A DNA stretch of 64,000 bases from a virus. This document shows, piece by piece, positions 2,415-55,514 of this stretch. Under the pieces are notes generated by a model. That model worked only from the letters and a program-made list of their open reading frames with translations, ran no database searches and was not told where the DNA came from. Numbering within the stretch: the first letter of the stretch is position 1; the number at the start of each line of letters is the position of its first letter. Where the stretch lies: UHGV virus genome UHGV-1366990; one strand, 5' to 3'. The translations under genes and the position numbers were made by a program.

Positions 2415-3161
2415 ATGGCATCTCTCCAAGATCTACGCAAGCTGAATGACTTCGAAAACCGTCATTACACATTCCAGCAATACGAACTTCCTCATAAGGA
2501 ACTGGAGTGTGTTACGACGGAGAATGGTCGTCATTACGTTTCACCGTCTGGTGTAAAACTGACATCCGTCACGACTATGCTGGGACGCACTGGAGATCAT
2601 GAATGGCTTGAGTCTTGGAGGAAGAAGCTGGGCGCAGAGGCCGCTGATCTTGAGACCATGCGCTGTGCTGACCGAGGGGAGAAGCTGCACCTTGCTTGTG
2701 AACTGTATCTAAAGAACCGCCCAATGAAAGAAGTGTTGGAAGCGGCTGGCGAATACATGTTCATGTTCAAGCAGCTGTTCCCTTACCTGAACAAGATGAC
2801 AAAGATCTATGCTCAGGAGATCCCATTATATAGCGAGGTGCTTGGTCTTGCAGGTCGTGTAGACCTTATCGGGGTTTATGAGGGTAAACCTGCTGTCATC
2901 GACTTCAAGACATCGAACACCATGAAGACGCGGGGCATGATCGAGGATTACAGTATTCAGCTGTGCTTATATTCGGTCATGTTCCAGCAGATGTTCGGCG
3001 TCAAGATCACCCGCCTCATCAACGTGATTGCCAACGAGTCTTCCCCTCTACCAACCGTCATTGAGTTCAACCGTGATGACATTCTGACTAAGATGTTTGA
3101 GCGTGTTCGTCTGTATCATCGCATGGATAAAGAACAAAACGGAGTCTGGCCGGATCACTAA
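2415..3161 (+). CDS. Putative PD-(D/E)XK family nuclease (RecB/Cas4-like)
   Basis: Motifs GRVDLIGVY...AVIDFKTS...QLCLYS resemble the D/ExK and QxxxY motifs of RecB-family nucleases. Confidence 0.5.
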   Translation: MASLQDLRKLNDFENRHYTFQQYELPHKELECVTTENGRHYVSPSGVKLTSVTTMLGRTGDHEWLESWRKKLGAEAADLETMRCADRGEKLHLACELYLKNRPMKEVLEAAGEYMFMFKQLFPYLNKMTKIYAQEIPLYSEVLGLAGRVDLIGVYEGKPAVIDFKTSNTMKTRGMIEDYSIQLCLYSVMFQQMFGVKITRLINVIANESSPLPTVIEFNRDDILTKMFERVRLYHRMDKEQNGVWPDH

Positions 3162-3189
3162 ATACCCCATAATCCTTGGGAGATTTTGT

Positions 3190-4698
3190 ATGGCAGACAT
3201 TCAGATTGTTAAGGTTAACGAAGTCCGCATGCGTTGCATCGCAGATCTTTCTATCAGGGAAGAACTTAATGACTACTTCAAATTCGAAGACCCGAACTTC
3301 GTTCCCAACCCCTTCTCTAAATGGGACGGGGTTGTCCGCCTATTTACCAAGTCATCTGGTCTAATCGATATCGGTCTGCTGTTTGAGGTATTTAAGTTCT
3401 GTAAGAACAACGGATACACCATTGAACTGGATCCGGCACTGAAGTACATTCAGGACATCCCAGATGAAGAAATCCGTGAATTCATCGACAGCCTGCATCC
3501 AAAGATCCGTACCGAAAATCACGAATATATCGATGCCGAGACTCGTGACTACCAGTACGACACCATCGCCAAGGCTATGCGTCAAACCAGATGCGTCTGT
3601 GAACTGGCTACGAGTGCCGGTAAGTCCTTTATTCTGTATGTCATGGCGCGGTACTACAGGCGGCGCAGAGAAGCTCTCGAAAGTCCTCTGAAGACGCTTA
3701 TCGTGGTGCCGTCAATCCACCTAGTCACTCAGCTGTACGACAACTTCGAAGAGTATGCGCATGGCAGTGATTGGAAGCCCGTTGTTAACACCCAGCTGAT
3801 TTTTGAGGGCGCGACAAAGGAGATCAGTAAACCAATCGTCATCAGCACATGGCAGGGCATTCAAGACCAGTCGAAGGAATGGTTCCACCAGTTCGGCGAT
3901 ATCGTGGTGGATGAAGTGCACACCTCCAAGTCTGAGAAACTGTCTTACATCCTGAACAACTGCATCTATGCCGACCAGCGCCTGGGGGTTACAGGTACGC
4001 TGGCGAACACCAAAGTTGCCGGGCTTCAGGTGGTGGCTCACTTCGGGGCGTACCATAAGATCATCACGGCTCGCGATCTTATCAATCTCGGGTACGCCAC
4101 TGACATCAAAGTGAAGATGATTCAGCTGAAGCACACTCCGGCGGATGCTGTTGGTCTAGACGGGGATTATTCCAAGGAAATAGAATACCTTATTACACAC
4201 CAGTCCCGCAACGAACTGATCGCCAAGATGGCACTGAATCTGAAAGGGAACGTGGCCATCATGTTCGAGCGTATTGACGCCCACATGATGGTTGTGTACG
4301 ATATGCTGAGCGCAGTCAAGCCCAACGTGTTTGTCATCAACGGGGAAGTGAAGATCGAAGACCGCCGCCGCATACAGAAAGCGATGGAGGATGGAGAAGA
4401 TATCACGTTGTTGGCTTCATACGGGACAATGCAACAGGGTGTGTCAATCAAGAAGCTACACCACCTTGTACTGGCACACCCGAGCAAGTCATATATCCGT
4501 GTCATACAGACATTGGGTCGTCTGATGCGTCAGCACTCCTCTAAGGACGTCGCGTGGATATGGGACTTAGTGGATGATGCATCGTACAACGCCAGCACGA
4601 ACCACGCTCTCAGGCACTCTCATGAACGTTACAAGTTTTACCTGGCAGAGCGCCACCCCGTGGAGTTCATGAAGGTGGCGCTGGGCAATCACGATTAA
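3190..4698 (+). CDS. uvsW: UvsW-like SF2 DNA helicase
   Basis: N-terminus resembles T4 UvsW; Walker A TSAGKS, DEVH box; internal ATG at 3190 (MADIQ...) of ORF 3097..4698. Confidence 0.85.
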   Translation: MADIQIVKVNEVRMRCIADLSIREELNDYFKFEDPNFVPNPFSKWDGVVRLFTKSSGLIDIGLLFEVFKFCKNNGYTIELDPALKYIQDIPDEEIREFIDSLHPKIRTENHEYIDAETRDYQYDTIAKAMRQTRCVCELATSAGKSFILYVMARYYRRRREALESPLKTLIVVPSIHLVTQLYDNFEEYAHGSDWKPVVNTQLIFEGATKEISKPIVISTWQGIQDQSKEWFHQFGDIVVDEVHTSKSEKLSYILNNCIYADQRLGVTGTLANTKVAGLQVVAHFGAYHKIITARDLINLGYATDIKVKMIQLKHTPADAVGLDGDYSKEIEYLITHQSRNELIAKMALNLKGNVAIMFERIDAHMMVVYDMLSAVKPNVFVINGEVKIEDRRRIQKAMEDGEDITLLASYGTMQQGVSIKKLHHLVLAHPSKSYIRVIQTLGRLMRQHSSKDVAWIWDLVDDASYNASTNHALRHSHERYKFYLAERHPVEFMKVALGNHD

Positions 4699-30687: not shown

Positions 30688-30721
30688 AAGGGCACTAAAT
30701 ACCACGTGCCCTTTATCTTTT
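30688..30721 (+). terminator. Rho-independent terminator
   Basis: GGGCAC/GTGCCC stem followed by TTTATCTTTT. Confidence 0.55.
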
Positions 30722-36170: not shown

Positions 36171-36200
36171 ATCCCCCTAAATACAGGGGGATTTCTTTTT
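36171..36200 (+). terminator. Rho-independent terminator
   Basis: ATCCCCC/GGGGGAT stem followed by TTCTTTTT. Confidence 0.6.
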
Positions 36201-36215
36201 CTGAGGAAACAAATC

Positions 36216-36569
36216 ATGGTCAATGCGAGTATTTTCATCAACCGTGGACTGCTTGCTATAGCCCACTCTCATGCCTTGCACTTCGTTACAACGTCCTATG
36301 CCAAGCACAAGGCACTCGGGGAGTTCTACGGGGATCTAGAGGACTTGCTGGACACGTTTACCGAAGCATACATCGGTGCGGGTGGTCAGTATGTTCCATC
36401 ATTCGAGAATATCAAATTGTACAACCCAGACCCTATCTCCTATATTAACAGTGTGGTGATAGACGTCGACGGTATCTACAGGCAGTGCGACTCCCACCTT
36501 CAGAACACGCTTGATGAAATCAAGACGCTGTGTTACCAGACGATCTACAAACTGAAGCAGCTGTCGTAA
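36216..36569 (+). CDS. Hypothetical protein
   Basis: Internal ATG (MVNASIF) with RBS GAGGAAA. Confidence 0.55.
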   Translation: MVNASIFINRGLLAIAHSHALHFVTTSYAKHKALGEFYGDLEDLLDTFTEAYIGAGGQYVPSFENIKLYNPDPISYINSVVIDVDGIYRQCDSHLQNTLDEIKTLCYQTIYKLKQLS

Positions 36570-36626
36570 GTCAATACAAAATAAAGGCATATAATTTTGC
36601 TCATTATTCACCAAAAGGAAAGGACA

Positions 36627-37238
36627 ATGAGCAAAATCTTTATCCCGTCACACCGCGAAGGATGTGAAATCGCGGCCAACTACCTGCGCGGTCGCATGAA
36701 CTGCGGCGCTGTCTTCATCGAGCCAAATTCGTTTGACAACAAAGAATCACCTGATGCCATCGGGTTCCGTTCCGGCGGTTGCTCTATCCTGATGGAAGTG
36801 AAGGTGTCTCGCTCTGATTTCCTTACCGACAAGAAGAAGCCCCATCGGATGGACCCCACAACAGGGATGGGCGCATACCGCTTTTATGTCTGCCCTCAGG
36901 ACGTGATCAGGGTTGAAGACCTGCCACCAAAGTGGGGGTTGTTCTACTTCACACCCCGCAAGTCCCTGATGCCAGTTCATGTGCCAGACATGCAGTACTC
37001 TTCATTGTCATCACCAGAGCATTATCAGAAGTACCTTGATGAACAGATCAAGAGAGGAAGAACCGTTACCCGGCATATGCGCAGCTACATGGAACTCCTC
37101 GACGGATTCGCCCACTTTGAGCGCAACACGACTGGGGAACAGAATATCCTGTATGGGGCTTGGCGCCAACTGTGTATAGCTCAAAGTCGTGGTGTAGACT
37201 ATACTGTGACCGAAGTGTTCCAGAGGCCGAAGATCTAA
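36627..37238 (+). CDS. Putative PD-(D/E)XK-like nuclease
   Basis: PDAIGF...ILMEVKVSRSDF resembles a D...ExK motif; low confidence. Confidence 0.45.
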   Translation: MSKIFIPSHREGCEIAANYLRGRMNCGAVFIEPNSFDNKESPDAIGFRSGGCSILMEVKVSRSDFLTDKKKPHRMDPTTGMGAYRFYVCPQDVIRVEDLPPKWGLFYFTPRKSLMPVHVPDMQYSSLSSPEHYQKYLDEQIKRGRTVTRHMRSYMELLDGFAHFERNTTGEQNILYGAWRQLCIAQSRGVDYTVTEVFQRPKI

Positions 37239-47026: not shown

Positions 47027-48637
47027 TTACTCTTTGGTGCCGAAATTACCACCATTGTCTTTTAATTCTGCCTTGATGTCAATCTCACCCGGACCCGTAG
47101 GGGATGCAGGGGTTGCACCTGACAGAGAAGAAGCGCGACCAGCACCTTCGGCATATATGATGTTACCATTGATCGTCTGAGCGACAGTCAGTTTGTCAGC
47201 GATTATCTCAGTCGTTAGAATCTTAGGAACCTTCAATGTCCCACCGACCTCCAGAGTCTCGCAGATAATGCGCAGAATATTCTGCGCTTGCATTTCCGCT
47301 AGGTCACTGAATTTCATCAGCGCTGTGCCCGCAACCACGTTGGAGTAATTGTTGGAATGCAAATGATAGACCTCACCTGTCTTGCGCTGAACTTCAGTTC
47401 CTTTGACCGTCAGGTTGTGGTCCCCGCCGACATAATAACGCTTGTTGAACATCGTCAGGTCATAGTGGTCTTTGACGGACTTGTTGACCACATCACCATC
47501 CGGCAACATTTGCTTGTAAGACCCAGACTTATGCATCCAATGAAGACGTTCACCACCAGGGGTGTCATCCACTTCCATAATATGCCCAGCTCGGGACACC
47601 ATGACGTTATTGTACGGGTATTTAGATCCACCCGCAGCCGGAACCATGGTTTCTCCAGTGTTGTCAATATCCTGTACTCGCCCAGTAGGAGCCGGAGTCG
47701 GTTGTTCCTTTGGAGTACGATCTGGGATAGGTTCTGACCATTTACCATTCTGCTGCGCAGGCGCGGCTGTGGCTGTGTTAGCAGGACCAGGCCAACGATA
47801 TCCCAAGACCGAAGAACGTCTGAAACGACTGACCTTCACTGAATCGGATTGGTTGCCACCAATACACCAGACATAGTTTGCATCGAACTTCTGCACAAAC
47901 GCTACGTGTCCAAATGTGGGGTTGTTACCACGCCGGAAGACTACGATAGCGCCATATTGTGGTGCTGACAGTGGAGTGCCCCATGTAAGGTAAGATCGGG
48001 CAAGAGCGGAGCGCGTAGACGTGTATCCAGCCTGTATCATAACCCAACCCACGAACGCCGCACACCACGACACTTCATCTTCAGAAGCACCAAGGGAGGT
48101 TGTCTTGTGATATTCTATAATGCGCGGGTTGTTGTTGAACTTTCCAGCGTACTCCTTGATACCCAATTCGCCACGAGCGATTGTCATCCACTTCTCTGGA
48201 TCATACCCGCCAACAGGTGGTTGTGGATCTGGTTGTGGTTCGTCTTCTTGTTTCACAGGAACGTCAGTGACGGCGTTGTACGCCTGACGTTCCACAGATT
48301 GAACGACCTGCCCGAGAGCCAGCGGGTTTGTGTCGGCGCCATCAGTAGGGCTTGAACCAGTCCAAGTCCAGGTGATGCGTAAATTCTGGTATGCTTCGTC
48401 AAGGGCGAACCCCATAACCTCAGTGCCAGGAATGATACCCGTTGGAGACCAACCTAAACCAGCAGAGGAGGCGTTTGAAGCAGGCATCAGTACCTTCGCC
48501 CATGGGAGTTTGTCCGTAGGCAGGAGGACGGGATCGTCGGTGTGTACGCCATATATGCGAACAGCAACTCGCCCATTTTGGTCTGGATCGTTGACATCTT
48601 CAACGGTGCCGTAAAACCATCTCATATTGTCTAACAT
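47027..48637 (-). CDS. 5: Baseplate hub/tail-puncturing protein (gp5-like) with CHAP/NlpC-P60-like domain
   Basis: N-terminal OB region resembles T4 gp5; central SWCAAFVGWV...GHVAFV Cys/His motif; C-terminal beta-helix-like region. Confidence 0.75.
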   Translation of the reverse strand: MLDNMRWFYGTVEDVNDPDQNGRVAVRIYGVHTDDPVLLPTDKLPWAKVLMPASNASSAGLGWSPTGIIPGTEVMGFALDEAYQNLRITWTWTGSSPTDGADTNPLALGQVVQSVERQAYNAVTDVPVKQEDEPQPDPQPPVGGYDPEKWMTIARGELGIKEYAGKFNNNPRIIEYHKTTSLGASEDEVSWCAAFVGWVMIQAGYTSTRSALARSYLTWGTPLSAPQYGAIVVFRRGNNPTFGHVAFVQKFDANYVWCIGGNQSDSVKVSRFRRSSVLGYRWPGPANTATAAPAQQNGKWSEPIPDRTPKEQPTPAPTGRVQDIDNTGETMVPAAGGSKYPYNNVMVSRAGHIMEVDDTPGGERLHWMHKSGSYKQMLPDGDVVNKSVKDHYDLTMFNKRYYVGGDHNLTVKGTEVQRKTGEVYHLHSNNYSNVVAGTALMKFSDLAEMQAQNILRIICETLEVGGTLKVPKILTTEIIADKLTVAQTINGNIIYAEGAGRASSLSGATPASPTGPGEIDIKAELKDNGGNFGTKE

Positions 48638-48671
48638 ATTGAATTCCGGTTGTCAAACAAGGATTTGAAGG

Positions 48672-48679
48672 TATTTATG
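48672..48679 (-). promoter_or_regulatory. Late-promoter-like CATAAATA (minus strand) upstream of gp5-like gene
   Basis: Plus-strand TATTTATG; same ~35-nt spacing to start codon 48637. Confidence 0.45.
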
Positions 48680-48745
48680 CGCAGCTGATTTTGCCTTATA
48701 TACTATAGGAAGCTCTGCTTCCGTTCATTTTATTTGTTTTATTCG

Positions 48746-48765
48746 ATCCTATTCGCTTCGCTCAT
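48746..48765. repeat. Inverted copy of the 20-bp element at 5230..5249
   Basis: Reverse complement identical to 5230..5249; preceded by shared 11-mer TATTTGTTTTA (48731..48741; 5220..5230). Confidence 0.8.
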
Positions 48766-48973
48766 CAAACCGCCCTATGCGGGCAGCACCATTCCAATGC
48801 CATGGAGGCATAAGGGCGAGGCAATAACTGTACACCCCAGAACACTCCTTGAAAAATGGTATTTTACTGACAATCTGATTCAAAACAGACAAACACCAAC
48901 AAATGACTCGGGAACAAGCCCATTATAGCAATTTCAGGTAAAGAGAGTGCGTGTTAACCGATTTTACAGTTAA

Positions 48974-49001
48974 GCCAATAAAAATCCCGCCGAAGCGGGA
49001 T
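48974..49001 (-). terminator. Minus-strand rho-independent terminator
   Basis: ATCCCGC/GCGGGAT stem followed on the minus strand by TTTTTATT. Confidence 0.5.
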
Positions 49002-49149
49002 TACTGTTTCTTAGACAACCTGACCTTGAGGGCTTCGGTTAACAAGTCAAGATGCCATGGCATCGACTCGTTGATTTCAAATATACTATAGCCGTGTAAC
49101 TTCAATTCATCACACATCACGAAGTAGGATAATAAATCAGTTTCAAACA

Positions 49150-49956
49150 TTAAATGAAAATTTCATTAATACTATTGAATTCGATTTTGTGCTCCTTACC
49201 ACATTTCGGACACTTGATCGAACTCTTGTAGTGGATGCGCGGTATTTTGTGGAAGAAGTTCTTCGTAATGCTGTCAATAACATCTGATTCGATGTTATCC
49301 TTCACCCACTCAACAAACGCTTCTTTCACACGGCGGCGCTCAGTAGCCTCTTCCGGAGTGATCCCGATTTCTTCAGGATTCTCAACCTTCCACACCTGAC
49401 CGTCATCATCGTACAGACAGTCGATAAAGGTGGCCAGCATCATCTCAACGCTTACAGCATCAGACATTGCCGTAGCGTCCGAGAAGGAAGGTTGGCGCAT
49501 CTTGAGGTGATATCCACCTGGCAGGTCAAACGTCTCCCGGAAGCCGTCCTGAGCAATGCATTTGACGTTGTTCAACGGGATAGGTAGAGTCAGTTCCTGC
49601 TCACAGGGAACCATCTGGTGCTTTTCTTGACCATCTCCCAGATCGATCGTTTCTTCAATCTGATTATTACACTTATAACGAATCTTCATCAATTCACCGA
49701 TGGAGATCATGCGCATGCGGATGAACACTTCCTCAACAACGCCGATTGGCAGTTTACTGAAAGGTGCGCCTGCATTTACACACTCGCTAAAGAGACTCTC
49801 CATCATGGCCGCGCGTTCTTCAATCGGCGTTTGCGGATCTGACACCTGAAGTAATAAAGTTTGTTGCCCCGCAGTAAAGGCGCGATATTTGATCACAGTA
49901 GGCCAAAAGTCGCTTTTATATGTCTTTTCTGTTCTGGGCAATGATGGTAAATTCAT
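49150..49956 (-). CDS. Hypothetical protein with C-terminal zinc ribbon (CPKCGKEH)
   Basis: Internal ATG (MNLPSLP) of minus ORF 49150..50070 with RBS GGAGA. Confidence 0.6.
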   Translation of the reverse strand: MNLPSLPRTEKTYKSDFWPTVIKYRAFTAGQQTLLLQVSDPQTPIEERAAMMESLFSECVNAGAPFSKLPIGVVEEVFIRMRMISIGELMKIRYKCNNQIEETIDLGDGQEKHQMVPCEQELTLPIPLNNVKCIAQDGFRETFDLPGGYHLKMRQPSFSDATAMSDAVSVEMMLATFIDCLYDDDGQVWKVENPEEIGITPEEATERRRVKEAFVEWVKDNIESDVIDSITKNFFHKIPRIHYKSSIKCPKCGKEHKIEFNSINEIFI

Positions 49957-49999: not shown

Positions 50000-50530
50000 A
50001 TGAAAATGCGCGGATTTTGTTTTAGTGAAATAGGCAAAGAACTGTCTATACAATATCCCGATCCCAACACAGACTTCTTTATCTTCCTGACCGATTATGC
50101 CAAGAAAGAGAATATCCTCCATGTGGCAATGAAACACGAAGATTATAAGTTCTGTCGGCTGGGTGTCAAAGACCTGCTGCGTTATGGTCTACAAGTGGTC
50201 ATCGTAGACCCATACTACAGCCCTATCGACGATGAAGAAGTTCTACCCGTATATGTTCACCGCAACATCAATACATTGGAAAAGCATTATCCAGATTGTA
50301 TTGTCATCGGCGAACTCATCTCGTATTATCATCGTGTGCGAAAGCTGGAACAGATTAAAAGTTATTTTCAAGAGGGTGTTGGTCAATATAAGATGAATGC
50401 CCTTAGTAGTGGATGGATGGTGCTGTCTTCAGCAGGCAGTGCTGACTATATTAAGATGCGTGTCTACCAATACGTTGTGGAGCGCGATTATGAACTGGAG
50501 AAAAGTAATGCAAAACGAAAAACCCGTTGA
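50000..50530 (+). CDS. Hypothetical protein (start 50000 or 50006)
   Basis: 176-aa ORF, divergent from minus gene. Confidence 0.55.
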   Translation: MKMRGFCFSEIGKELSIQYPDPNTDFFIFLTDYAKKENILHVAMKHEDYKFCRLGVKDLLRYGLQVVIVDPYYSPIDDEEVLPVYVHRNINTLEKHYPDCIVIGELISYYHRVRKLEQIKSYFQEGVGQYKMNALSSGWMVLSSAGSADYIKMRVYQYVVERDYELEKSNAKRKTR

Positions 50531-50999
50531 ACTTGCTCCGATTGAGGAAGTACAACAACACGTCCTGGACCTTATGAAACACACAGTTTCTGATGCCGAA
50601 GGTAAAGTGCCGGATGAGTTCATCGGTGCGTTCGATCAGGTGGCTTTCGATACCGAGGGAGTTCCTTTGATCCAGACGATCGCTGGTATGGTTTTGTTTG
50701 AACCGAAAGCAGTAGAAAATGGCGTAATCGTCTACTCAGCCAACATTGGTGTGGACGGTGAGTCCCTGTCTCTCGAAGTTAGCAACATTGCTAAGTACCT
50801 GATCAAGTGTGGTTATGATCTGCAGGTTGTGACAGCCCACTACATCGATCCTCAGGGGCAGATCTCCTACGGTGATGAAGCGCGCAAAGTGAAACGCCAC
50901 ATCGACACTACCGTGATCCTGCAGAGTATCCAACAGATGCAGAAGAACCTGGACCACCCTGGTCTGATCCTGCCTGATAGCAAAATCATCACCCGTTAA
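50508..50999 (+). CDS. Hypothetical protein
   Basis: Internal ATG (MQNEKPV) with RBS GGAG; overlaps upstream gene by 23 nt. Confidence 0.55.
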   Translation: MQNEKPVELAPIEEVQQHVLDLMKHTVSDAEGKVPDEFIGAFDQVAFDTEGVPLIQTIAGMVLFEPKAVENGVIVYSANIGVDGESLSLEVSNIAKYLIKCGYDLQVVTAHYIDPQGQISYGDEARKVKRHIDTTVILQSIQQMQKNLDHPGLILPDSKIITR

Positions 51000-51005
51000 C
51001 CCGGC

Positions 51006-51050
51006 GTAAATAGCCCATACACCAATGAAACTTCGTTATGGGCTATTTAC
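51006..51050 (+). promoter_or_regulatory. Perfect 14-bp inverted repeat (17-nt loop) abutting start codon of resolvase-like gene
   Basis: GTAAATAGCCCATA ... TATGGGCTATTTAC then ATG at 51051. Confidence 0.6.
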
Positions 51051-51641
51051 ATGAAATATTGCGGAATCGACTACTCCTATGGCTGTCCATCCCTGTGCTT
51101 CTGGGATGACAAAGACCCTCTTGATTTTGATCATCTGCGCTTCTACGCATATTATACTGTGGAGAAGTACTGTACTCAGATTCGTCAGAACATCCTTATT
51201 ATGAAGCAACCGAAGTGGGAGACCCCAGAAGAACGCTTCTATAATATCTGTAAATGGGCTGAGGCTGTCCTGTTGACTGAGAAGCCGGATGCGATCACTC
51301 TTGAAGGGTATGCTATGGGCAACTCTAAGAACTCCAACAACATATGCCAGACCGCAGAGAATACCTCACTGTTGAAGCAAGCCCTGCGCCGTAACAATTT
51401 CGACTTCCAGATCGTAACGCCATCACACGTGAAGAAGATGTTCACCGACAAGGGCAACGCGGATAAACACGCCATGATCGCTCACTTCGAGTCACTGTTC
51501 AATGTTAGCATGCGCGGTATAATGGATATGTTGGAAGTTAAGGATCCTAAGCCAATCGATGACCTCGTGGATTCGTTTGCGATAATGGCTTGTGGCTCTT
51601 ACTTCATTGAGAATAATCCAGACTTCAACAGAGGTGTATAA
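51051..51641 (+). CDS. Putative RuvC-like Holliday junction resolvase
   Basis: MKYCGIDYSYG, DAITLEGY, ADKHAMIAH, DSFAIMACG resemble the carboxylate motifs of RuvC-family resolvases (by-eye). Confidence 0.55.
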   Translation: MKYCGIDYSYGCPSLCFWDDKDPLDFDHLRFYAYYTVEKYCTQIRQNILIMKQPKWETPEERFYNICKWAEAVLLTEKPDAITLEGYAMGNSKNSNNICQTAENTSLLKQALRRNNFDFQIVTPSHVKKMFTDKGNADKHAMIAHFESLFNVSMRGIMDMLEVKDPKPIDDLVDSFAIMACGSYFIENNPDFNRGV

Positions 51642-51952
51642 TGGTCGATTATTGGTTGTTGGCGAACTTCCTGACGTTCGCTTTGTTGTTAGTGGTTGTC
51701 TTGGTCTGGGTGAAGTCGTTCTTCACTCTGGTTCATGCGTATGTGTACCAGATCAACTTCTACACACTGTCACCACATCGTGACACGAACGTTCGTGCCG
51801 ATCAACAGGCCGAGGCTATCCTCTCATATCAGTTCATCCACATGCGCGATAAAATGATCAAGCGTGTAGTGTTTTCTACAGTGATGTTGCTGGTTATCAT
51901 TATGGTACGTTTCGTGCTGACAACCGTGGGGGTGTTCCATGCCGCTGTATGA
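51641..51952 (+). CDS. Membrane protein (two predicted TM helices)
   Basis: Hydrophobic N- and C-terminal segments; TAATG overlap. Confidence 0.55.
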   Translation: MVDYWLLANFLTFALLLVVVLVWVKSFFTLVHAYVYQINFYTLSPHRDTNVRADQQAEAILSYQFIHMRDKMIKRVVFSTVMLLVIIMVRFVLTTVGVFHAAV

Positions 51953-52184
51953 TTATCAATGCAAGGGCTGTGGTAACGCGATGACACTGCGTAAATCTAT
52001 TGCAGATCGCCATGAGCCTGAATCCAACCCCTGCACTGAGTGCGGAGGGGAGATTAAAATGATCGTGGGTGCTCCCAAGATTGTCTCTGGGGTAAAGGGA
52101 CCACAATCAGCTCCAGACGGCTTCAAGGACGTCTTGCGTACGATAAAGAAGGGTTCGGGTAAGGGGAACACAATCGATGTCTGA
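51939..52184 (+). CDS. FmdB-like zinc-ribbon protein
   Basis: MPLYDYQCKGCG...CTECGG. Confidence 0.6.
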   Translation: MPLYDYQCKGCGNAMTLRKSIADRHEPESNPCTECGGEIKMIVGAPKIVSGVKGPQSAPDGFKDVLRTIKKGSGKGNTIDV

Positions 52185-52422
52185 CGAAAAACAGCCAGCG
52201 CTTGTGATGACACCAGAATTATTTTCTGAAATCGTCCTACTACGCGCCGCCCAAACCAAGGATAGTATCCTTGAGACTCTGGCAGCTGTCTGTGAAGAGA
52301 ACGACATAGACGAGACCAAAGTCAAAAAGATGATTACAGCACCATTGTTGTCACGACTGACAGCTGAGTGCTCCGATGCGCGCCTGATCAAAGACGCGCT
52401 AAAGTCCAAGAAATTAGTGTAG
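52177..52422 (+). CDS. Hypothetical protein
   Basis: 81-aa ORF. Confidence 0.5.
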   Translation: MSDEKQPALVMTPELFSEIVLLRAAQTKDSILETLAAVCEENDIDETKVKKMITAPLLSRLTAECSDARLIKDALKSKKLV

Positions 52423-52429
52423 GTCTATT

Positions 52430-52669
52430 ATGAGCAAAGAATCAATTTACAGCGCAATGAAAGCCTCCGAGTTCCTTCCTGGCTCTATGCGCTGGCGTGT
52501 GGGTAGCCTGAACGAGCATGCCGACCAGACGGATCGTATTCGTTACGTTACCCCTGATGGTCGCTCATACGTCGTTGAGTATCACACGCACGACGAAGGC
52601 AAGAAGACGTTTTCGGACGTGTTCGACATTATTGAAATTGACCCAGCAAATCAAGTGCTTAAAGGTTAA
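52430..52669 (+). CDS. Hypothetical protein
   Basis: 79-aa ORF. Confidence 0.5.
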   Translation: MSKESIYSAMKASEFLPGSMRWRVGSLNEHADQTDRIRYVTPDGRSYVVEYHTHDEGKKTFSDVFDIIEIDPANQVLKG

Positions 52670-52768
52670 TTCAATATAAGATCGGGGTATAATTACCCCG
52701 CTTTGTAGAAAACTGAAAATACATGTAACAGAATAGCCCTGAGGGGCGGAAACAGAGGAAATTAAGAA

Positions 52769-53785
52769 ATGGGTAATTTATTCGATCGTCTGAAAGCGTC
52801 CCGTGGCCAGCAAACTGAAGCTATGCAGGCGCGTCTTGCACAGCAAGGCCAGAAGTCCGGTTTCCAGAAGGATCCTCGCATCTGGAAATGGACTTGGAAT
52901 AAAGATGGTATCTCCGAGAACATCATCCGCTTCCTGCCAGTCCCGCTGGTAGACCTCAAGGCACAGGAAGAAGGGACGATCGATAAAGATCAGATCCTCA
53001 CCCCTTGTGCCATGATCATGAAACATCAGTTCCAGGGACCTGGTGGATGGTACATTGAGAACTCACCTCAGACGTTCGGCAACGACGATCCGGTGCGCGA
53101 CCATGACCGTCCGCTGTGGGCGCAGCAGAAAGAAACGAACGACGAAAAGCTGAAGGACATCCTGAAGAAACGTCTACCCGACACCAAATACTACGCTAAC
53201 ATTCTGGTGATCAAAGATGTCAACGTACCGGAAAACAACGGCAAGGTCTTCCTGCTGGAATTTGGTAACGCCATCAAGAAAATCCTGGATCAGGCGCAGA
53301 ATCCTAAGTTCCCAACCGACCCTAAATTCGATCCGTTTGATCTGTGGGAAGGTGCCAACCTGAACCTGAAGCTCTTTGGCGAGCAGAAGAAGTTTGGGAA
53401 CTGGGAAGGTCTGGTGGCAAACTTCAGTAAGGTGGTGTGGGAGAACCCTGCCCCGCTGAGTGATGACGAAGCGTATATGGAAGACGTCTGGTCTCGCGAG
53501 CACAGCCTGTTTGAATTCTTCAATCCGGCTAACTTCAAAGACTACGACTCCCTGGAAAAGCGCCTGCGCAAAGTTCTGGCAATCCCTGATGACCAACCTC
53601 TGGTTGAAGGTGGTGCAGCCACGATGGCTCATGCTCCTAGCACCCAGACTACACATCAGCCAACTGCTCAAGACAGCCTGAAACAGCAACAGGCCGCGCC
53701 GTCGCAGGCTCAGACTCAGTCTCAACCGAATGCCAGAAACACGGCTTCCATTGACGAATTCGAGCAGTATCTCAAGTCTAACTGA
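52769..53785 (+). CDS. 32: Single-stranded DNA-binding protein (gp32-like)
   Basis: YANILVIKDVNVPENNGKVFLLEFG and NPAPLSDDEAYM match T4 gp32; acidic C-terminus. Confidence 0.85.
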   Translation: MGNLFDRLKASRGQQTEAMQARLAQQGQKSGFQKDPRIWKWTWNKDGISENIIRFLPVPLVDLKAQEEGTIDKDQILTPCAMIMKHQFQGPGGWYIENSPQTFGNDDPVRDHDRPLWAQQKETNDEKLKDILKKRLPDTKYYANILVIKDVNVPENNGKVFLLEFGNAIKKILDQAQNPKFPTDPKFDPFDLWEGANLNLKLFGEQKKFGNWEGLVANFSKVVWENPAPLSDDEAYMEDVWSREHSLFEFFNPANFKDYDSLEKRLRKVLAIPDDQPLVEGGAATMAHAPSTQTTHQPTAQDSLKQQQAAPSQAQTQSQPNARNTASIDEFEQYLKSN

Positions 53786-53791
53786 TCAACA

Positions 53792-53818
53792 AGCCATCTT
53801 CGGATGGCTTTTTATTTT
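53792..53818 (+). terminator. Rho-independent terminator after gene 32
   Basis: AGCCATC/GATGGCT stem followed by TTTTATTTT. Confidence 0.65.
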
Positions 53819-54756
53819 CCCATCACGTCTTGCAATATTCCCAAAAGGCTTGTCTTCTCCGCCGCCGTCAGGTTATCGTTACCCATGATGTCACGAGAGA
53901 TACCTACCGAGATGCGCTCGAAGTCCTGTATGCTTATTCCAGCCAGGTTGTTTACAAGTTGGTCAAGCTGTTTGTAAGCCAGGAGAGCCTCTCCTGTGAA
54001 GTTCCCTTCTTTCACCTTGCGATAAAGCTGTCCAGCTTTTGAGGCCGCAGTTTCCCAGTCACCACTGGTAAGAGCGTCAGCAATGCCGAGAGGAAGAAAA
54101 TCGCTGGAAAGGCTGCGTGTTTCATATTCTGTCTCCGAAAGCACTTTGTTGTAAGAGAAAGAAATGTTGTACTGGTTGAACTGGTCTGTGGCGCCTTTAT
54201 CCAGCTCAATAGAACTGAAATTTATTGGGTGAGCCTCGACGATGTAGACGCGATGGACCACTTGATCTTCGGTGTCAAGCTGTTCAATGCATATGTCAGT
54301 CACGAAGTCTTCGTAATATCCCATTTTGGTGGTGTGTGGATCAAAGATCAGACTCTTCCACTTGTCCATCACAGACTTCTCATAATAGTCATTGGCTAAT
54401 AAGAATGACAAGTCGAGGTCGACGTTGGACTTGTTGTTCGGCATCTTGATGTGATTACCGTTGTTTGTCATTGGAGTGGTGTCGATACCAACCCCTGGCA
54501 ATGAGGCAACCATACACATCATCTGAAGGGAACGGGACGTCTGGTTTGTCCCTCCAAAGAAAGCGTTTACAATACGGGCTGACTGCTTAAACAAGTCACC
54601 GAAAGATGAATTGGTTCTGTACGCCTTTCCGTCATTAGCCAGAGAGGCATTGGAGTCAAAGATCCCTGGTGGTAGAGGGATGGTCACTCTGAAGCGGTTC
54701 TTGCGCGACAAGCCCCGCTGTAATATCTGTGTGATAAAATTGCGATAGTCTTCCAC
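53812..54756 (-). CDS. Hypothetical late protein (possibly structural); GTG start
   Basis: 314-aa minus ORF; perfect TATAAATA 35 nt upstream plus GGAG RBS. Confidence 0.6.
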   Translation of the reverse strand: MEDYRNFITQILQRGLSRKNRFRVTIPLPPGIFDSNASLANDGKAYRTNSSFGDLFKQSARIVNAFFGGTNQTSRSLQMMCMVASLPGVGIDTTPMTNNGNHIKMPNNKSNVDLDLSFLLANDYYEKSVMDKWKSLIFDPHTTKMGYYEDFVTDICIEQLDTEDQVVHRVYIVEAHPINFSSIELDKGATDQFNQYNISFSYNKVLSETEYETRSLSSDFLPLGIADALTSGDWETAASKAGQLYRKVKEGNFTGEALLAYKQLDQLVNNLAGISIQDFERISVGISRDIMGNDNLTAAEKTSLLGILQDVMGK

Positions 54757-54790
54757 GGTGAGGACTCCACTTAAATAAAATAACTGTTAT

Positions 54791-54798
54791 TATTTATA
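54791..54798 (-). promoter_or_regulatory. T4-type late promoter TATAAATA (minus strand)
   Basis: Plus-strand TATTTATA; 35 nt upstream of minus GTG start 54756. Confidence 0.6.
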
Positions 54799-54809
54799 GG
54801 AGTTGACAA

Positions 54810-55514
54810 ATGGCAAAGAATGCAGCTGGCGAAGAAGATCCGTTGCTGTTTCCGGCCGAGATGGACGCCCCCGAGCTGGTCAAGCGTTACATCCGCAAGT
54901 ACCGTCAACACTTCGGTCCAGAGGCGAAGCGTAACATCCGCCGTTCGCATGTGTGGTTCATGGAGCGTGTGTCTAAGGACGCCAACCTGAGTCCCAACCA
55001 TATGAAACAGGCGTTTTCTGATCACAAACGTCCGGTACAAGGTGTGCGGTATATAGTCGGGCGTATGTTCTATTTCAAATATGATGCTCTGACGAAGAAT
55101 GAACTACCCTACTGGGATATGTACCCTCTGGTGTTCTTCTTCAACTTTGTCAAGGGTGATGGTATCACCTTTGGAGAGAAGGGTGTGACATACCTCTGGG
55201 GGCTCAACATGCACTACCTGCCACCGAAGCTCAGGCTGTTGGTGTTTGAGGATCTGATCAAGTTGCGTAACGAACGGGCATACCGCTCAAAGACGCGTCT
55301 GAAGCTCACCTGGGAAGCCCTGAAGCGCTTCGCCAACCATCCGCTGTACAATCACTGTGTGAAGCTGTACCGTGCCGATCAGTTCCGTTCACAGCTTTAC
55401 GAGATTGAGCCACAGTACTGGGAGATCGTTCTCTTCATGCGCACTGCCCGCTTCCAGAAACAGAGCCAGATGTCTGTGTGGAAAGATGCACGTCGTATGC
55501 ATAAGAAGAAATAG
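54810..55514 (+). CDS. Hypothetical basic protein
   Basis: 234-aa ORF, RBS AGGAG. Confidence 0.6.
   Translation: MAKNAAGEEDPLLFPAEMDAPELVKRYIRKYRQHFGPEAKRNIRRSHVWFMERVSKDANLSPNHMKQAFSDHKRPVQGVRYIVGRMFYFKYDALTKNELPYWDMYPLVFFFNFVKGDGITFGEKGVTYLWGLNMHYLPPKLRLLVFEDLIKLRNERAYRSKTRLKLTWEALKRFANHPLYNHCVKLYRADQFRSQLYEIEPQYWEIVLFMRTARFQKQSQMSVWKDARRMHKKK

Follow-up and report, generated by a model that had tools for sequence, protein, structure and literature searches.

The window analysed here, the 64,000-nucleotide (nt) stretch of the virus genome UHGV-1366990, contains a gene for a RuvC-like Holliday junction resolvase (ruvC) that is preceded by an intergenic gap of 51 nt, and this gap is almost wholly filled by an inverted repeat, the probable part of which in the timing of ruvC expression is the subject of this article. 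The repeat is exactly as the initial annotation, made from the sequence alone, had described it, namely, a perfect 14-bp stem with a 17-nt loop whose 3' arm ends one base before the ATG at 51051 (the coordinates of all features are given in the table below). The identity proposed there for the downstream gene is likewise confirmed: the 196-amino-acid (aa) open reading frame (ORF) matches Pfam RuvC at 7e-5, above the curated cut-off, and phrog_159 (RuvC-like Holliday junction resolvase) at 1.7e-53. The true start of ruvC is ATG 51051: no in-frame start codon lies between it and the upstream stop (TAA 50997-50999), and all relatives share the N-terminus MKYCGIDYS. Positions -14 to -1 of the gene are the 3' arm, with a Shine-Dalgarno-like GGG at 51040-51042 followed by an A/U-rich spacer up to the AUG; thus, the ribosome-binding region does lie inside the stem, as originally suggested, and this stem is both stable and evolutionarily maintained. 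In the region compared, the window is 99% identical to Escherichia phages YX22, LHE287 and AV101, ~94% identical to Shigella phage Ag3 and Salmonella phage SKML-39, and 84% identical to Dickeya phage LIMEstone1 and, because of these identities, we assign it by sequence to an Agtrevirus-like phage of the family Ackermannviridae.

Among the perfect hairpin-type inverted repeats in the 64 kb (loop of at most 30 nt), the 14-bp repeat is the longest, and an arm of 14 or more was obtained in none of 40 first-order Markov simulations, so the repeat is not a chance feature. The RNA folding energy, a calculation that the initial annotation had called for, is -25.3 kcal/mol for the segment 50990-51075 (z-score of -4.1) and -20.9 kcal/mol for the segment 50995-51053 (z-score of -5.2), with none of 200 shuffled sequences folding as well in either case. 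Both a search with the arms and a covariance model indicate that the hairpin is present in a single copy in the window. Membership in a family of dispersed repeats was considered and rejected because the arm search, at up to 3 mismatches, remained at the chance level (5 matches against 2.7 expected, none of them another real copy) and the covariance model found one credible site in the window. A search of the segment 50800-51300 against Rfam, on both strands, produced no covariance-model match up to E = 1.

The inverted repeat is not only real but also conserved. The stem is retained in the leaders of Agtrevirus, Limestonevirus, Kuttervirus, Taipeivirus, Miltonvirus (Serratia) and a Bue1-like phage, and in the enterobacterial Ackermannviridae the pairing is under selection: in a MAFFT alignment of 8 leaders, 87% of the cells are paired compared to 31-50% in registers slid by 1-3 columns, and changes on both sides of a pair occur 4 times in the true register and never in any slid one. 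Across the alignments of this group, the corresponding values are 87-90% and 30-54%. When MAFFT was applied to 11 leaders, it misplaced a one-base insertion of Agtrevirus and was replaced by a model-based alignment, which leans to the modelled structure by construction, with the unbiased MAFFT subset giving the same answer; in the model-based alignment, the Agtrevirus insertion is a matched one, with one whole pair added by a G on the 5' side and a C on the 3' side of the stem. A covariance model built from the 8 leaders, with the window left out, matches the window at 50999-51056 on the plus strand with 56 bits (E ~1e-9).

The same design is found much further afield. Among the 78 viral contigs fetched with an alignment of RuvC-like proteins, it recurs upstream of RuvC-like genes that are 31-42% identical, with stems that are unrelated in sequence. 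Altogether, at least 12 lineages have it ahead of a RuvC-like gene, the stem sequences being different and compensated, and unrelated stems are present in Miltonvirus, the Bue1-like phage, Ralstonia RSP15, Vibrio VAP7 and the metagenomic L068, L079, L081, L092 and L091. In these lineages, the hexamer TAAATA, which in the window is embedded in the 5' arm, lies within this arm or adjoins it, and a transcript from the predicted late start would be without all or most of the arm; wherever the design is present, the end of the 3' arm and the start codon are 0-7 nt apart. Of the 15 leaders that were folded, 12 have z-scores between -3.6 and -6.4, RSP15 has a z-score of -2.0, and two are not significant.

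The sequence TAAATA is the conserved core of the T4 late promoter, TATAAATA. It occurs only 19 times in the window, both strands included, and 8 of these copies are located 31-44 nt upstream of the start of an ORF on the same strand (binomial P ~1e-11, or ~2e-6 when 5 candidate starts are allowed for each gene); accordingly placed, TAAATA in the window would seem to act like a promoter element. The genes behind these sites include those for a uvsW-like helicase, gp5, a gp54-like tail-tube initiator and a gp2-like DNA end protector, and the T4 counterparts of all four (uvsW, gp5, gp54 and gp2) are late genes. The base that precedes the hexamer (position -12) can be A, C, T or G over the candidate sites, so that the late-promoter core at work in this phage would seem to be nTAAATA, in many cases with a C-rich sequence behind it, rather than the full TATAAATA. 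Upstream of ruvC, TAAATA is kept in the distant lineages as well. In T4, late transcripts begin ~6 nt past the last A of TATAAATA and, by this geometry, the late ruvC mRNA should start near 51017-51019 and lack the 5' arm. In LIMEstone1, the homologous hexamer is annotated as 'minus_10_signal, putative late promoter', an annotation that was made in silico (PMC3296691). The phage also seems to possess late transcription machinery of the T4 type (gp55, gp33 and gp45): a gp33 homologue is encoded in the window, and AG3, a relative with ~94% identity over the 2.5-kb stretch compared, encodes gp55, gp33 and gp45 (PMC3121705).

How the two kinds of RNA would differ was evaluated through the opening cost, that is, the ensemble free energy required to make positions -15 to +4 of ruvC single-stranded. 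The predicted cost is 18.8 kcal/mol on read-through RNA as opposed to 5.7 kcal/mol on late RNA; the contrast is unchanged when the predicted start is shifted by 2 nt in either direction, and a similar contrast between the long and short RNAs is seen in 13 other lineages. The difference between read-through and late RNA amounts to 13.1 kcal/mol for ruvC compared to between -1.7 and +4.7 kcal/mol for the other seven TAAATA-gene pairs in the window, so the hairpin is specific to the ruvC leader and is not a general attribute of late promoters.

The genes around ruvC follow one another on the plus strand in the order: two ORFs of unknown function, ruvC, a small membrane protein, an FmdB-type zinc-ribbon protein, gp33, a small ORF and gp32. 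The ORF directly upstream of ruvC ends 6 nt before the stem. A terminator scan of the plus strand found no terminator-like site between this ORF and ruvC, nor any in 50000-53790, the first strong one being at 53791-53810, past gp32. Transcripts over the upstream ORF that read on would hold both arms of the hairpin.

Taken as a whole, these features make it probable, in our judgment, that the hairpin serves as the RNA component of a temporal switch of the T4 gene 49 type, by which the resolvase could be translated only from late transcripts. According to this scheme, ruvC would belong to a longer plus-strand transcription unit that comprises the ORFs from 50000 on, ruvC, gp33 and gp32, and in the read-through RNA coming from upstream, 51006-51019 would pair with 51037-51050, burying the sequence from the Shine-Dalgarno-like GGG through to the AUG, so that no ribosome would start and no resolvase would be made. 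In the late phase, RNA polymerase with the late sigma factor gp55 and gp33 would recognise TAAATA and start transcription within the last bases of the 5' arm; the late mRNA, with the 5' arm missing, would be unable to form the stem and would be translated. The resolvase would thereby be confined to the late phase, when branched DNA, replicating or recombining, needs to be resolved for packaging. The original suggestion that the structure tightly limits translation is sound inasmuch as the initiation region is occluded, but it is incomplete: because the 5' arm holds the putative promoter core, the stem would be present only on transcripts from upstream and would act as a switch in time, not as a permanent brake. 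The repeat, the stability of the RNA, the selection for pairing, the motif with its genome-wide positional bias and the geometry were all computed here; that the motif is active as a promoter, where exactly transcription starts, that read-through RNA exists before the late phase and that translation is blocked are points that we infer from the sequence and by analogy with T4.

Several observations weigh against such a switch. The searched literature contains no transcript 5' ends and no expression timing for any phage of the Ackermannviridae, so that the promoter activity and the start site rest on the analogy with T4. The motif upstream of ruvC is GTAAATA, not the full T4 consensus, a deviation that is within the range of the family given that the base before TAAATA varies among the sites of the window. 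The GGG is a weak Shine-Dalgarno element, and the late leader is predicted to be still partly structured, with an unpaired probability of 0.48 at its opening cost of 5.7 kcal/mol. The design is widespread but not universal: among the contigs examined, it is lacking in the RuvC-bearing Vibrio K471 and Stenotrophomonas DLP_6 and in many metagenomic contigs, where ruvC has a plain Shine-Dalgarno sequence, sometimes behind a terminator. The weakest link, however, is the source of the pre-late RNA, since there is no convincing conserved promoter of the sigma70 type within ~1.1 kb upstream to supply it; the sequence TTGTCA-17-TATTAT at 50301-50329 in the window, a 10/12 match, is not positionally conserved in the relatives. 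The case for a pre-late RNA is, accordingly, an indirect one. The stem being under selection, both arms are expected to be transcribed together in some RNA. Furthermore, in T4, gp33 must be made before late transcription can begin and, because the gp33 gene is located downstream of ruvC with no terminator in between, the stretch from ruvC to gp33 would be transcribed also before the late phase.

The alternative that fares best, and which we nevertheless consider unlikely, is that the hairpin is a constitutive brake, present in full on all ruvC mRNAs and keeping the output of a potentially toxic nuclease low at all times, with TAAATA being no promoter at all. The stem that covers the initiation region and the weak Shine-Dalgarno element are what such a brake would predict, and the promoter activity of TAAATA is deduced from sequence and analogy. 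Nevertheless, a brake leaves unexplained why TAAATA is kept in or next to the 5' arm where the stems otherwise share no sequence, and why the hexamer is rare in the genome and is placed in a promoter-like manner in front of orthologues of late genes, with the homologous position in LIMEstone1 annotated as a late promoter. Besides, a stem of ~19 kcal/mol on every transcript would nearly abolish the expression of a conserved gene.

Similarly, we regard as quite unlikely a role of the hairpin as a terminator, an attenuator or a protective 3'-end hairpin for the upstream ORFs, whereby the overlap with the late promoter of ruvC and the occlusion of the ribosome-binding site would be incidental. Like an intrinsic terminator, the ruvC hairpin is an intergenic stem-loop right after a stop codon, at a distance of 6 nt, and a U-rich stretch comes after the 3' arm in Kuttervirus, T4 and VAP7. 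Unlike a terminator, the element of the window has no U-tract (its 3' flank reads CAUGAAAUAUUGCGG / CATGAAATATTG), combines a long, 17-nt loop with an A/U-rich stem, overlaps the initiation region and is not called by the terminator scan; moreover, it would cut off the downstream gp33 and gp32. In RSP15 and L097, a separate canonical terminator is located just upstream, and there is still a hairpin over the start region, whereas the short distance of the 3' arm from the start codon, maintained in every lineage, has no rationale in a 3'-end hairpin. Translational coupling to the upstream ORF also was entertained as a conserved purpose but is unlikely: the spacing between stop codon and stem differs among the relatives and, in RSP15 and L097, the terminator intervenes.

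An element acting at the level of DNA, either a palindromic operator for a dimeric regulator, as the initial annotation had proposed in its second suggestion of a protein operator, or a cruciform recognised by the resolvase itself and involved in autoregulation, appears very improbable to us. The inverted repeat is perfect in DNA, to be sure, and the product of the adjacent gene cuts four-way junctions. However, the half-sites change in concert, with compensation; the loop that separates them is poorly conserved in both length and sequence, ranging among the relatives from 5 nt, in Serratia phage Kevin, to the 17 nt of the window; and the G-U pairs of L042 and L092, as expected of a helix in sense-strand RNA, as well as those of T4 gene 49, become A-C mismatches on the other strand. 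Compensated half-sites, a variable loop and G-U pairs in the sense strand only are marks of an RNA helix, so the operator interpretation finds no support. The covariance model, in the same vein, strongly prefers the sense strand, scoring 50-82 bits in the relatives compared to 17-29 bits for the antisense strand, and arms of 14 bp separated by a 17-nt loop are not well suited to extruding a cruciform. Divergent late promoters, whereby the repeat, with both arms reading GTAAATAGCCC on their own strands, would fire late transcription in both directions, are equally hard to credit: a minus-strand TAAATA is present in the window, Limestonevirus, L042, L068 and L092, but the corresponding sequence is not TAAATA in Kuttervirus and Taipeivirus (AAAATA) nor in Serratia Kevin, RSP15, L081 and VAP7, where the pairing is kept nonetheless, the leftward RNA would be antisense to ~1 kb of plus-strand genes, and gp26 of LIMEstone1, further left, has its own annotated late promoter of the TATAAATA type directly upstream, at a position where the window reads TATAATTA.

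The temporal switch, by contrast, has well-characterized precedents in T4. According to section 12 of PMC2988022, the leader of T4 gene 49 has a late promoter inside the hairpin that sequesters the ribosome-binding site (Barth, Powell, Trupin, Mosig 1988, Genetics 120:329); this section prints the gene number as '39', but the reference it gives there is Barth et al. 1988, on gene 49. The same section (refs 60-63) places in this class I-TevI, I-TevII, I-TevIII, segB, Aeh1 mobE, e (lysozyme), soc, 25 and 26, and explains that on early or middle polycistronic RNA a stem masks the ribosome-binding site, the late promoter being placed such that this stem cannot form in the late RNA (PMC2988022). 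In the ruvC leader, we find a stable stem over the Shine-Dalgarno region and up to the start codon, with the pairing kept by compensated changes, and, at the sequence level, a late-promoter motif in the 5' arm with the predicted start inside the hairpin; hence, the ruvC hairpin most likely belongs to this class of late-promoter-in-hairpin switches, as judged from sequence and analogy. With the other T4 switches it shares the logic, and several of those genes also encode nucleases, whereas the genes themselves and the stem sequences differ. I-TevI additionally represses its own promoter, something for which there is no evidence in the case of the element described here.

The similarity to gene 49 is particularly close. 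The T4 leader (GenBank Y00122) reads gaaaATAATAAATACCCTTATCtatttaAGGTAAGGGTTTATT-ATG, with the arms AATAAATACCCTTATC..AGGTAAGGGTTTATT-ATG, and its fold has an energy of -16.3 kcal/mol (z-score of -3.5). Both genes encode proteins with a Holliday junction resolvase function, and both leaders have a TAAATA-type promoter in the 5' arm, a CCC that pairs with GGG, an A/U-rich spacer and an AUG just past the 3' arm; the distance from TAAATA to AUG is 35 nt in T4 gene 49 and 44 nt in the window, and the opening costs on the long and short RNAs are 16.8 and 3.4 kcal/mol in T4 versus 18.8 and 5.7 kcal/mol in the window. Even the sequences are alike, with the common form TAAATACCC...GGGT(T)TAT..ATG, and the leader of Kuttervirus, CTAAATACCCATAA...TTATGGGTATTTTT-ATG, is almost the same cassette. 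Within the T4 locus, the Ackermannviridae model ranks this leader first, if weakly, and because the match has only 16.8 bits and an E of 0.09, we claim resemblance, not homology. There are also clear differences. The product of gene 49 is endonuclease VII, the fold and family of which are unrelated to those of the RuvC/RNase H-like protein of the window; T4 belongs to the Straboviridae and has gene 49 next to the nrd genes and gene 55, whereas in the Ackermannviridae phage the neighbours are gp33 and gp32; the stem in the window is longer and perfect, and the loop is larger; and the element in the window is known from sequence, whereas the T4 switches have mapped starts and genetic tests. An internal GUG start in T4 gene 49, reportedly described by Barth and colleagues, is said to give rise to a nested, shorter protein.

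Two evolutionary scenarios can be envisaged. Under the first, which we advance as a tentative and rather doubtful possibility, the TAAATACCC...GGGTATTT-AUG cassette would be an ancient, T4-like 'resolvase expression slot' that has outlasted the gene it once carried: the Straboviridae would have inherited the switch in front of endonuclease VII, and the Ackermannviridae and their allies in front of the RuvC-like protein, with the resolvase gene itself swapped for a non-homologous one. The alternative, namely, that two unrelated resolvases converged on the switch, is quite plausible because a late promoter with CCC behind it will of itself be complementary to a ribosome-binding site composed of GGG and an A/U-rich part. 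Either inheritance or convergence would show strong, recurrent selection for strictly late junction cutting.

Table. Features of the ruvC locus, TAAATA sites of the window, and leaders with the same design in distant lineages
Feature	Coordinates	Strand	Basis or remark
5' arm, GTAAATAGCCCATA	51006-51019	+	Read from sequence; fold; pairing kept with compensated changes
Loop, CACCAATGAAACTTCGT, 17 nt	51020-51036	+	Optional inner stem of 4 bp, 51025-51028 with 51033-51036
3' arm, TATGGGCTATTTAC	51037-51050	+	Translation initiation region of ruvC; ATG 51051 directly after
TAAATA, putative T4-type late-promoter core (-10-like, gp55/gp33 machinery)	51007-51012	+	Embedded in 5' arm
Predicted late transcription start	51017-51019	+	T4 geometry; last bases of 5' arm
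ruvC, RuvC-like Holliday junction resolvase, 196 aa	51051-51641	+	Pfam RuvC, phrog_159
Upstream ORF, 163 aa, phrog_3801, function unknown	50508-50999	+	Equals LIMEstone1 ORF057
gp33 homologue (late-transcription co-activator)	52177-52422	+	phrog_254, 2.8e-20; annotations of relatives
Gene-linked TAAATA sites	3159, 25199, 36178, 46189, 48677, 51007, 54772, 54796	+, -, +, +, -, +, +, - (in this order)	
RSP15 leader			TAAATACCTGCATA..TATGAGGTAT cttatt ATG
L068 leader			TAAATAGTACC..GGTACTATTTA aa ATG
L079 leader			TAAATAGTACC..GGTACTATTT t ATG
L081 leader			TAAATA GGCATAG..CTATGCC ATG
L092 leader			TAAATACCTTATT..GATGAGGTATTTA at GTG
VAP7 leader			AAGCCCTCTAaata..TAGAGGGCTT tatt ATG

The 3' arm of the ruvC hairpin contains a second ATG (51038), which in the window is out of frame because of the one-base insertion and in some relatives is annotated as the start. 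In particular, ruvC is annotated as starting 12 nt upstream, at this 3'-arm ATG (TTATGGGTATTT), in L016 at 2540 (LIMEstone1, HE600015) and in L017 at 1189 (Klebsiella phage 0507-KN2-1); since it is the downstream ATG that is the conserved start, both annotations are probably 4 codons too long. As for the metagenomic RuvC relatives without TAAATA, L045, L048-L051 and L063 share a motif of the form CTAAGTT-N(5-8)-TATA-like, located ~15-30 nt upstream of a GGAGA Shine-Dalgarno sequence in front of ruvC, directly after a zinc-ribbon ORF (CPFCG), and this motif may represent a different promoter class.

Other leaders in the window present variations on the themes of late promoters and hairpins. The leader of the uvsW-like helicase (3159-3192, plus strand) resembles a miniature version of the ruvC leader, in that the CCCC after TAAATA can pair with the Shine-Dalgarno sequence GGGAG, with predicted opening costs of 14.1 kcal/mol on read-through RNA and 9.5 kcal/mol on late RNA, a difference of 4.7 kcal/mol. 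A second hairpin, at 36590-36637 on the plus strand, includes a 12-bp perfect repeat (36594-36605 / 36626-36637) with a 20-nt loop; its folding energy is -17.9 kcal/mol (z-score of -4.4), and the 3' arm contains the AUG (36627) of a 203-aa ORF similar to phrog_631 / 'DNA repair protein'. The 5' arm is abutted by a TATAAT box (36590-36595), and both this box and the pairing, including a compensated change from U-A to C-G, are kept in the Limestonevirus-like, Kuttervirus and Taipeivirus relatives (L102-L105); the gene upstream of this hairpin (36216-36569) has TAAATA at 36178. Conceivably, the second hairpin may be a mirror image of the ruvC switch, with the transcripts from the TATAAT box being translated and the read-through (late) ones blocked. 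In 54756-54810, TAAATA motifs on opposite strands (54772, plus, and 54796, minus) overlap in the 54-bp gap between the divergent genes for the gp54-like (minus) and gp2-like (plus) proteins and are likely to be back-to-back late promoters. Finally, CTAAATA is found at 30695-30701 and at 36177-36183 (plus strand) in the loops of terminator-like hairpins, aagggcaCTAAATAccacgtgcccttt-atctttt and ggatccccCTAAATAcagggggat-ttcttttt, which suggests compact composites of a terminator and a late promoter.

To the left of the ruvC locus, the minus strand carries the baseplate hub genes gp5 (47027-48637) and gp26 (49150-49956). A perfect sigma70 consensus, TTGACA-16 nt-TATAAT (12/12), is located on the minus strand at 50169-50142, inside a plus-strand ORF (50000-50530), and points leftwards to gp26, which starts at 49956; it may be an early promoter of gp26 or a source of antisense RNA. 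In T4, genes 25 and 26 are transcribed early as well. In the gap between the two hub genes (48638-49149), at 48983-49002, there is a symmetric G+C-rich hairpin, AATCCCGCCGAAGCGGGATT, with T-runs on both strands, which is probably a bidirectional terminator.

In the literature that we searched, there is no earlier description of a hairpin and late-promoter device upstream of a RuvC-like gene. The mechanism itself is already textbook knowledge for T4; what is new, as far as this literature goes, is its recurrence across phage families and its placement ahead of an enzyme that shares the function without being homologous. On the practical side, the annotated start of ruvC in some relatives should be moved 12 nt downstream, the core that can be used as a late promoter in the Ackermannviridae seems to be TAAATA and not the complete TATAAATA and, with regard to expression and engineering, ruvC cloned with its native long leader should yield little protein. 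The switch offers a testable account of the timing of resolvase production in the Ackermannviridae, a family that includes the phages of the ViI/CBA120/LIMEstone type employed in biocontrol and phage therapy. A T4 device that was described in the 1980s thus recurs in a different phage family, and its position in front of non-homologous resolvases suggests that replicating phage DNA is, as a rule, harmed by resolvase activity that comes early.

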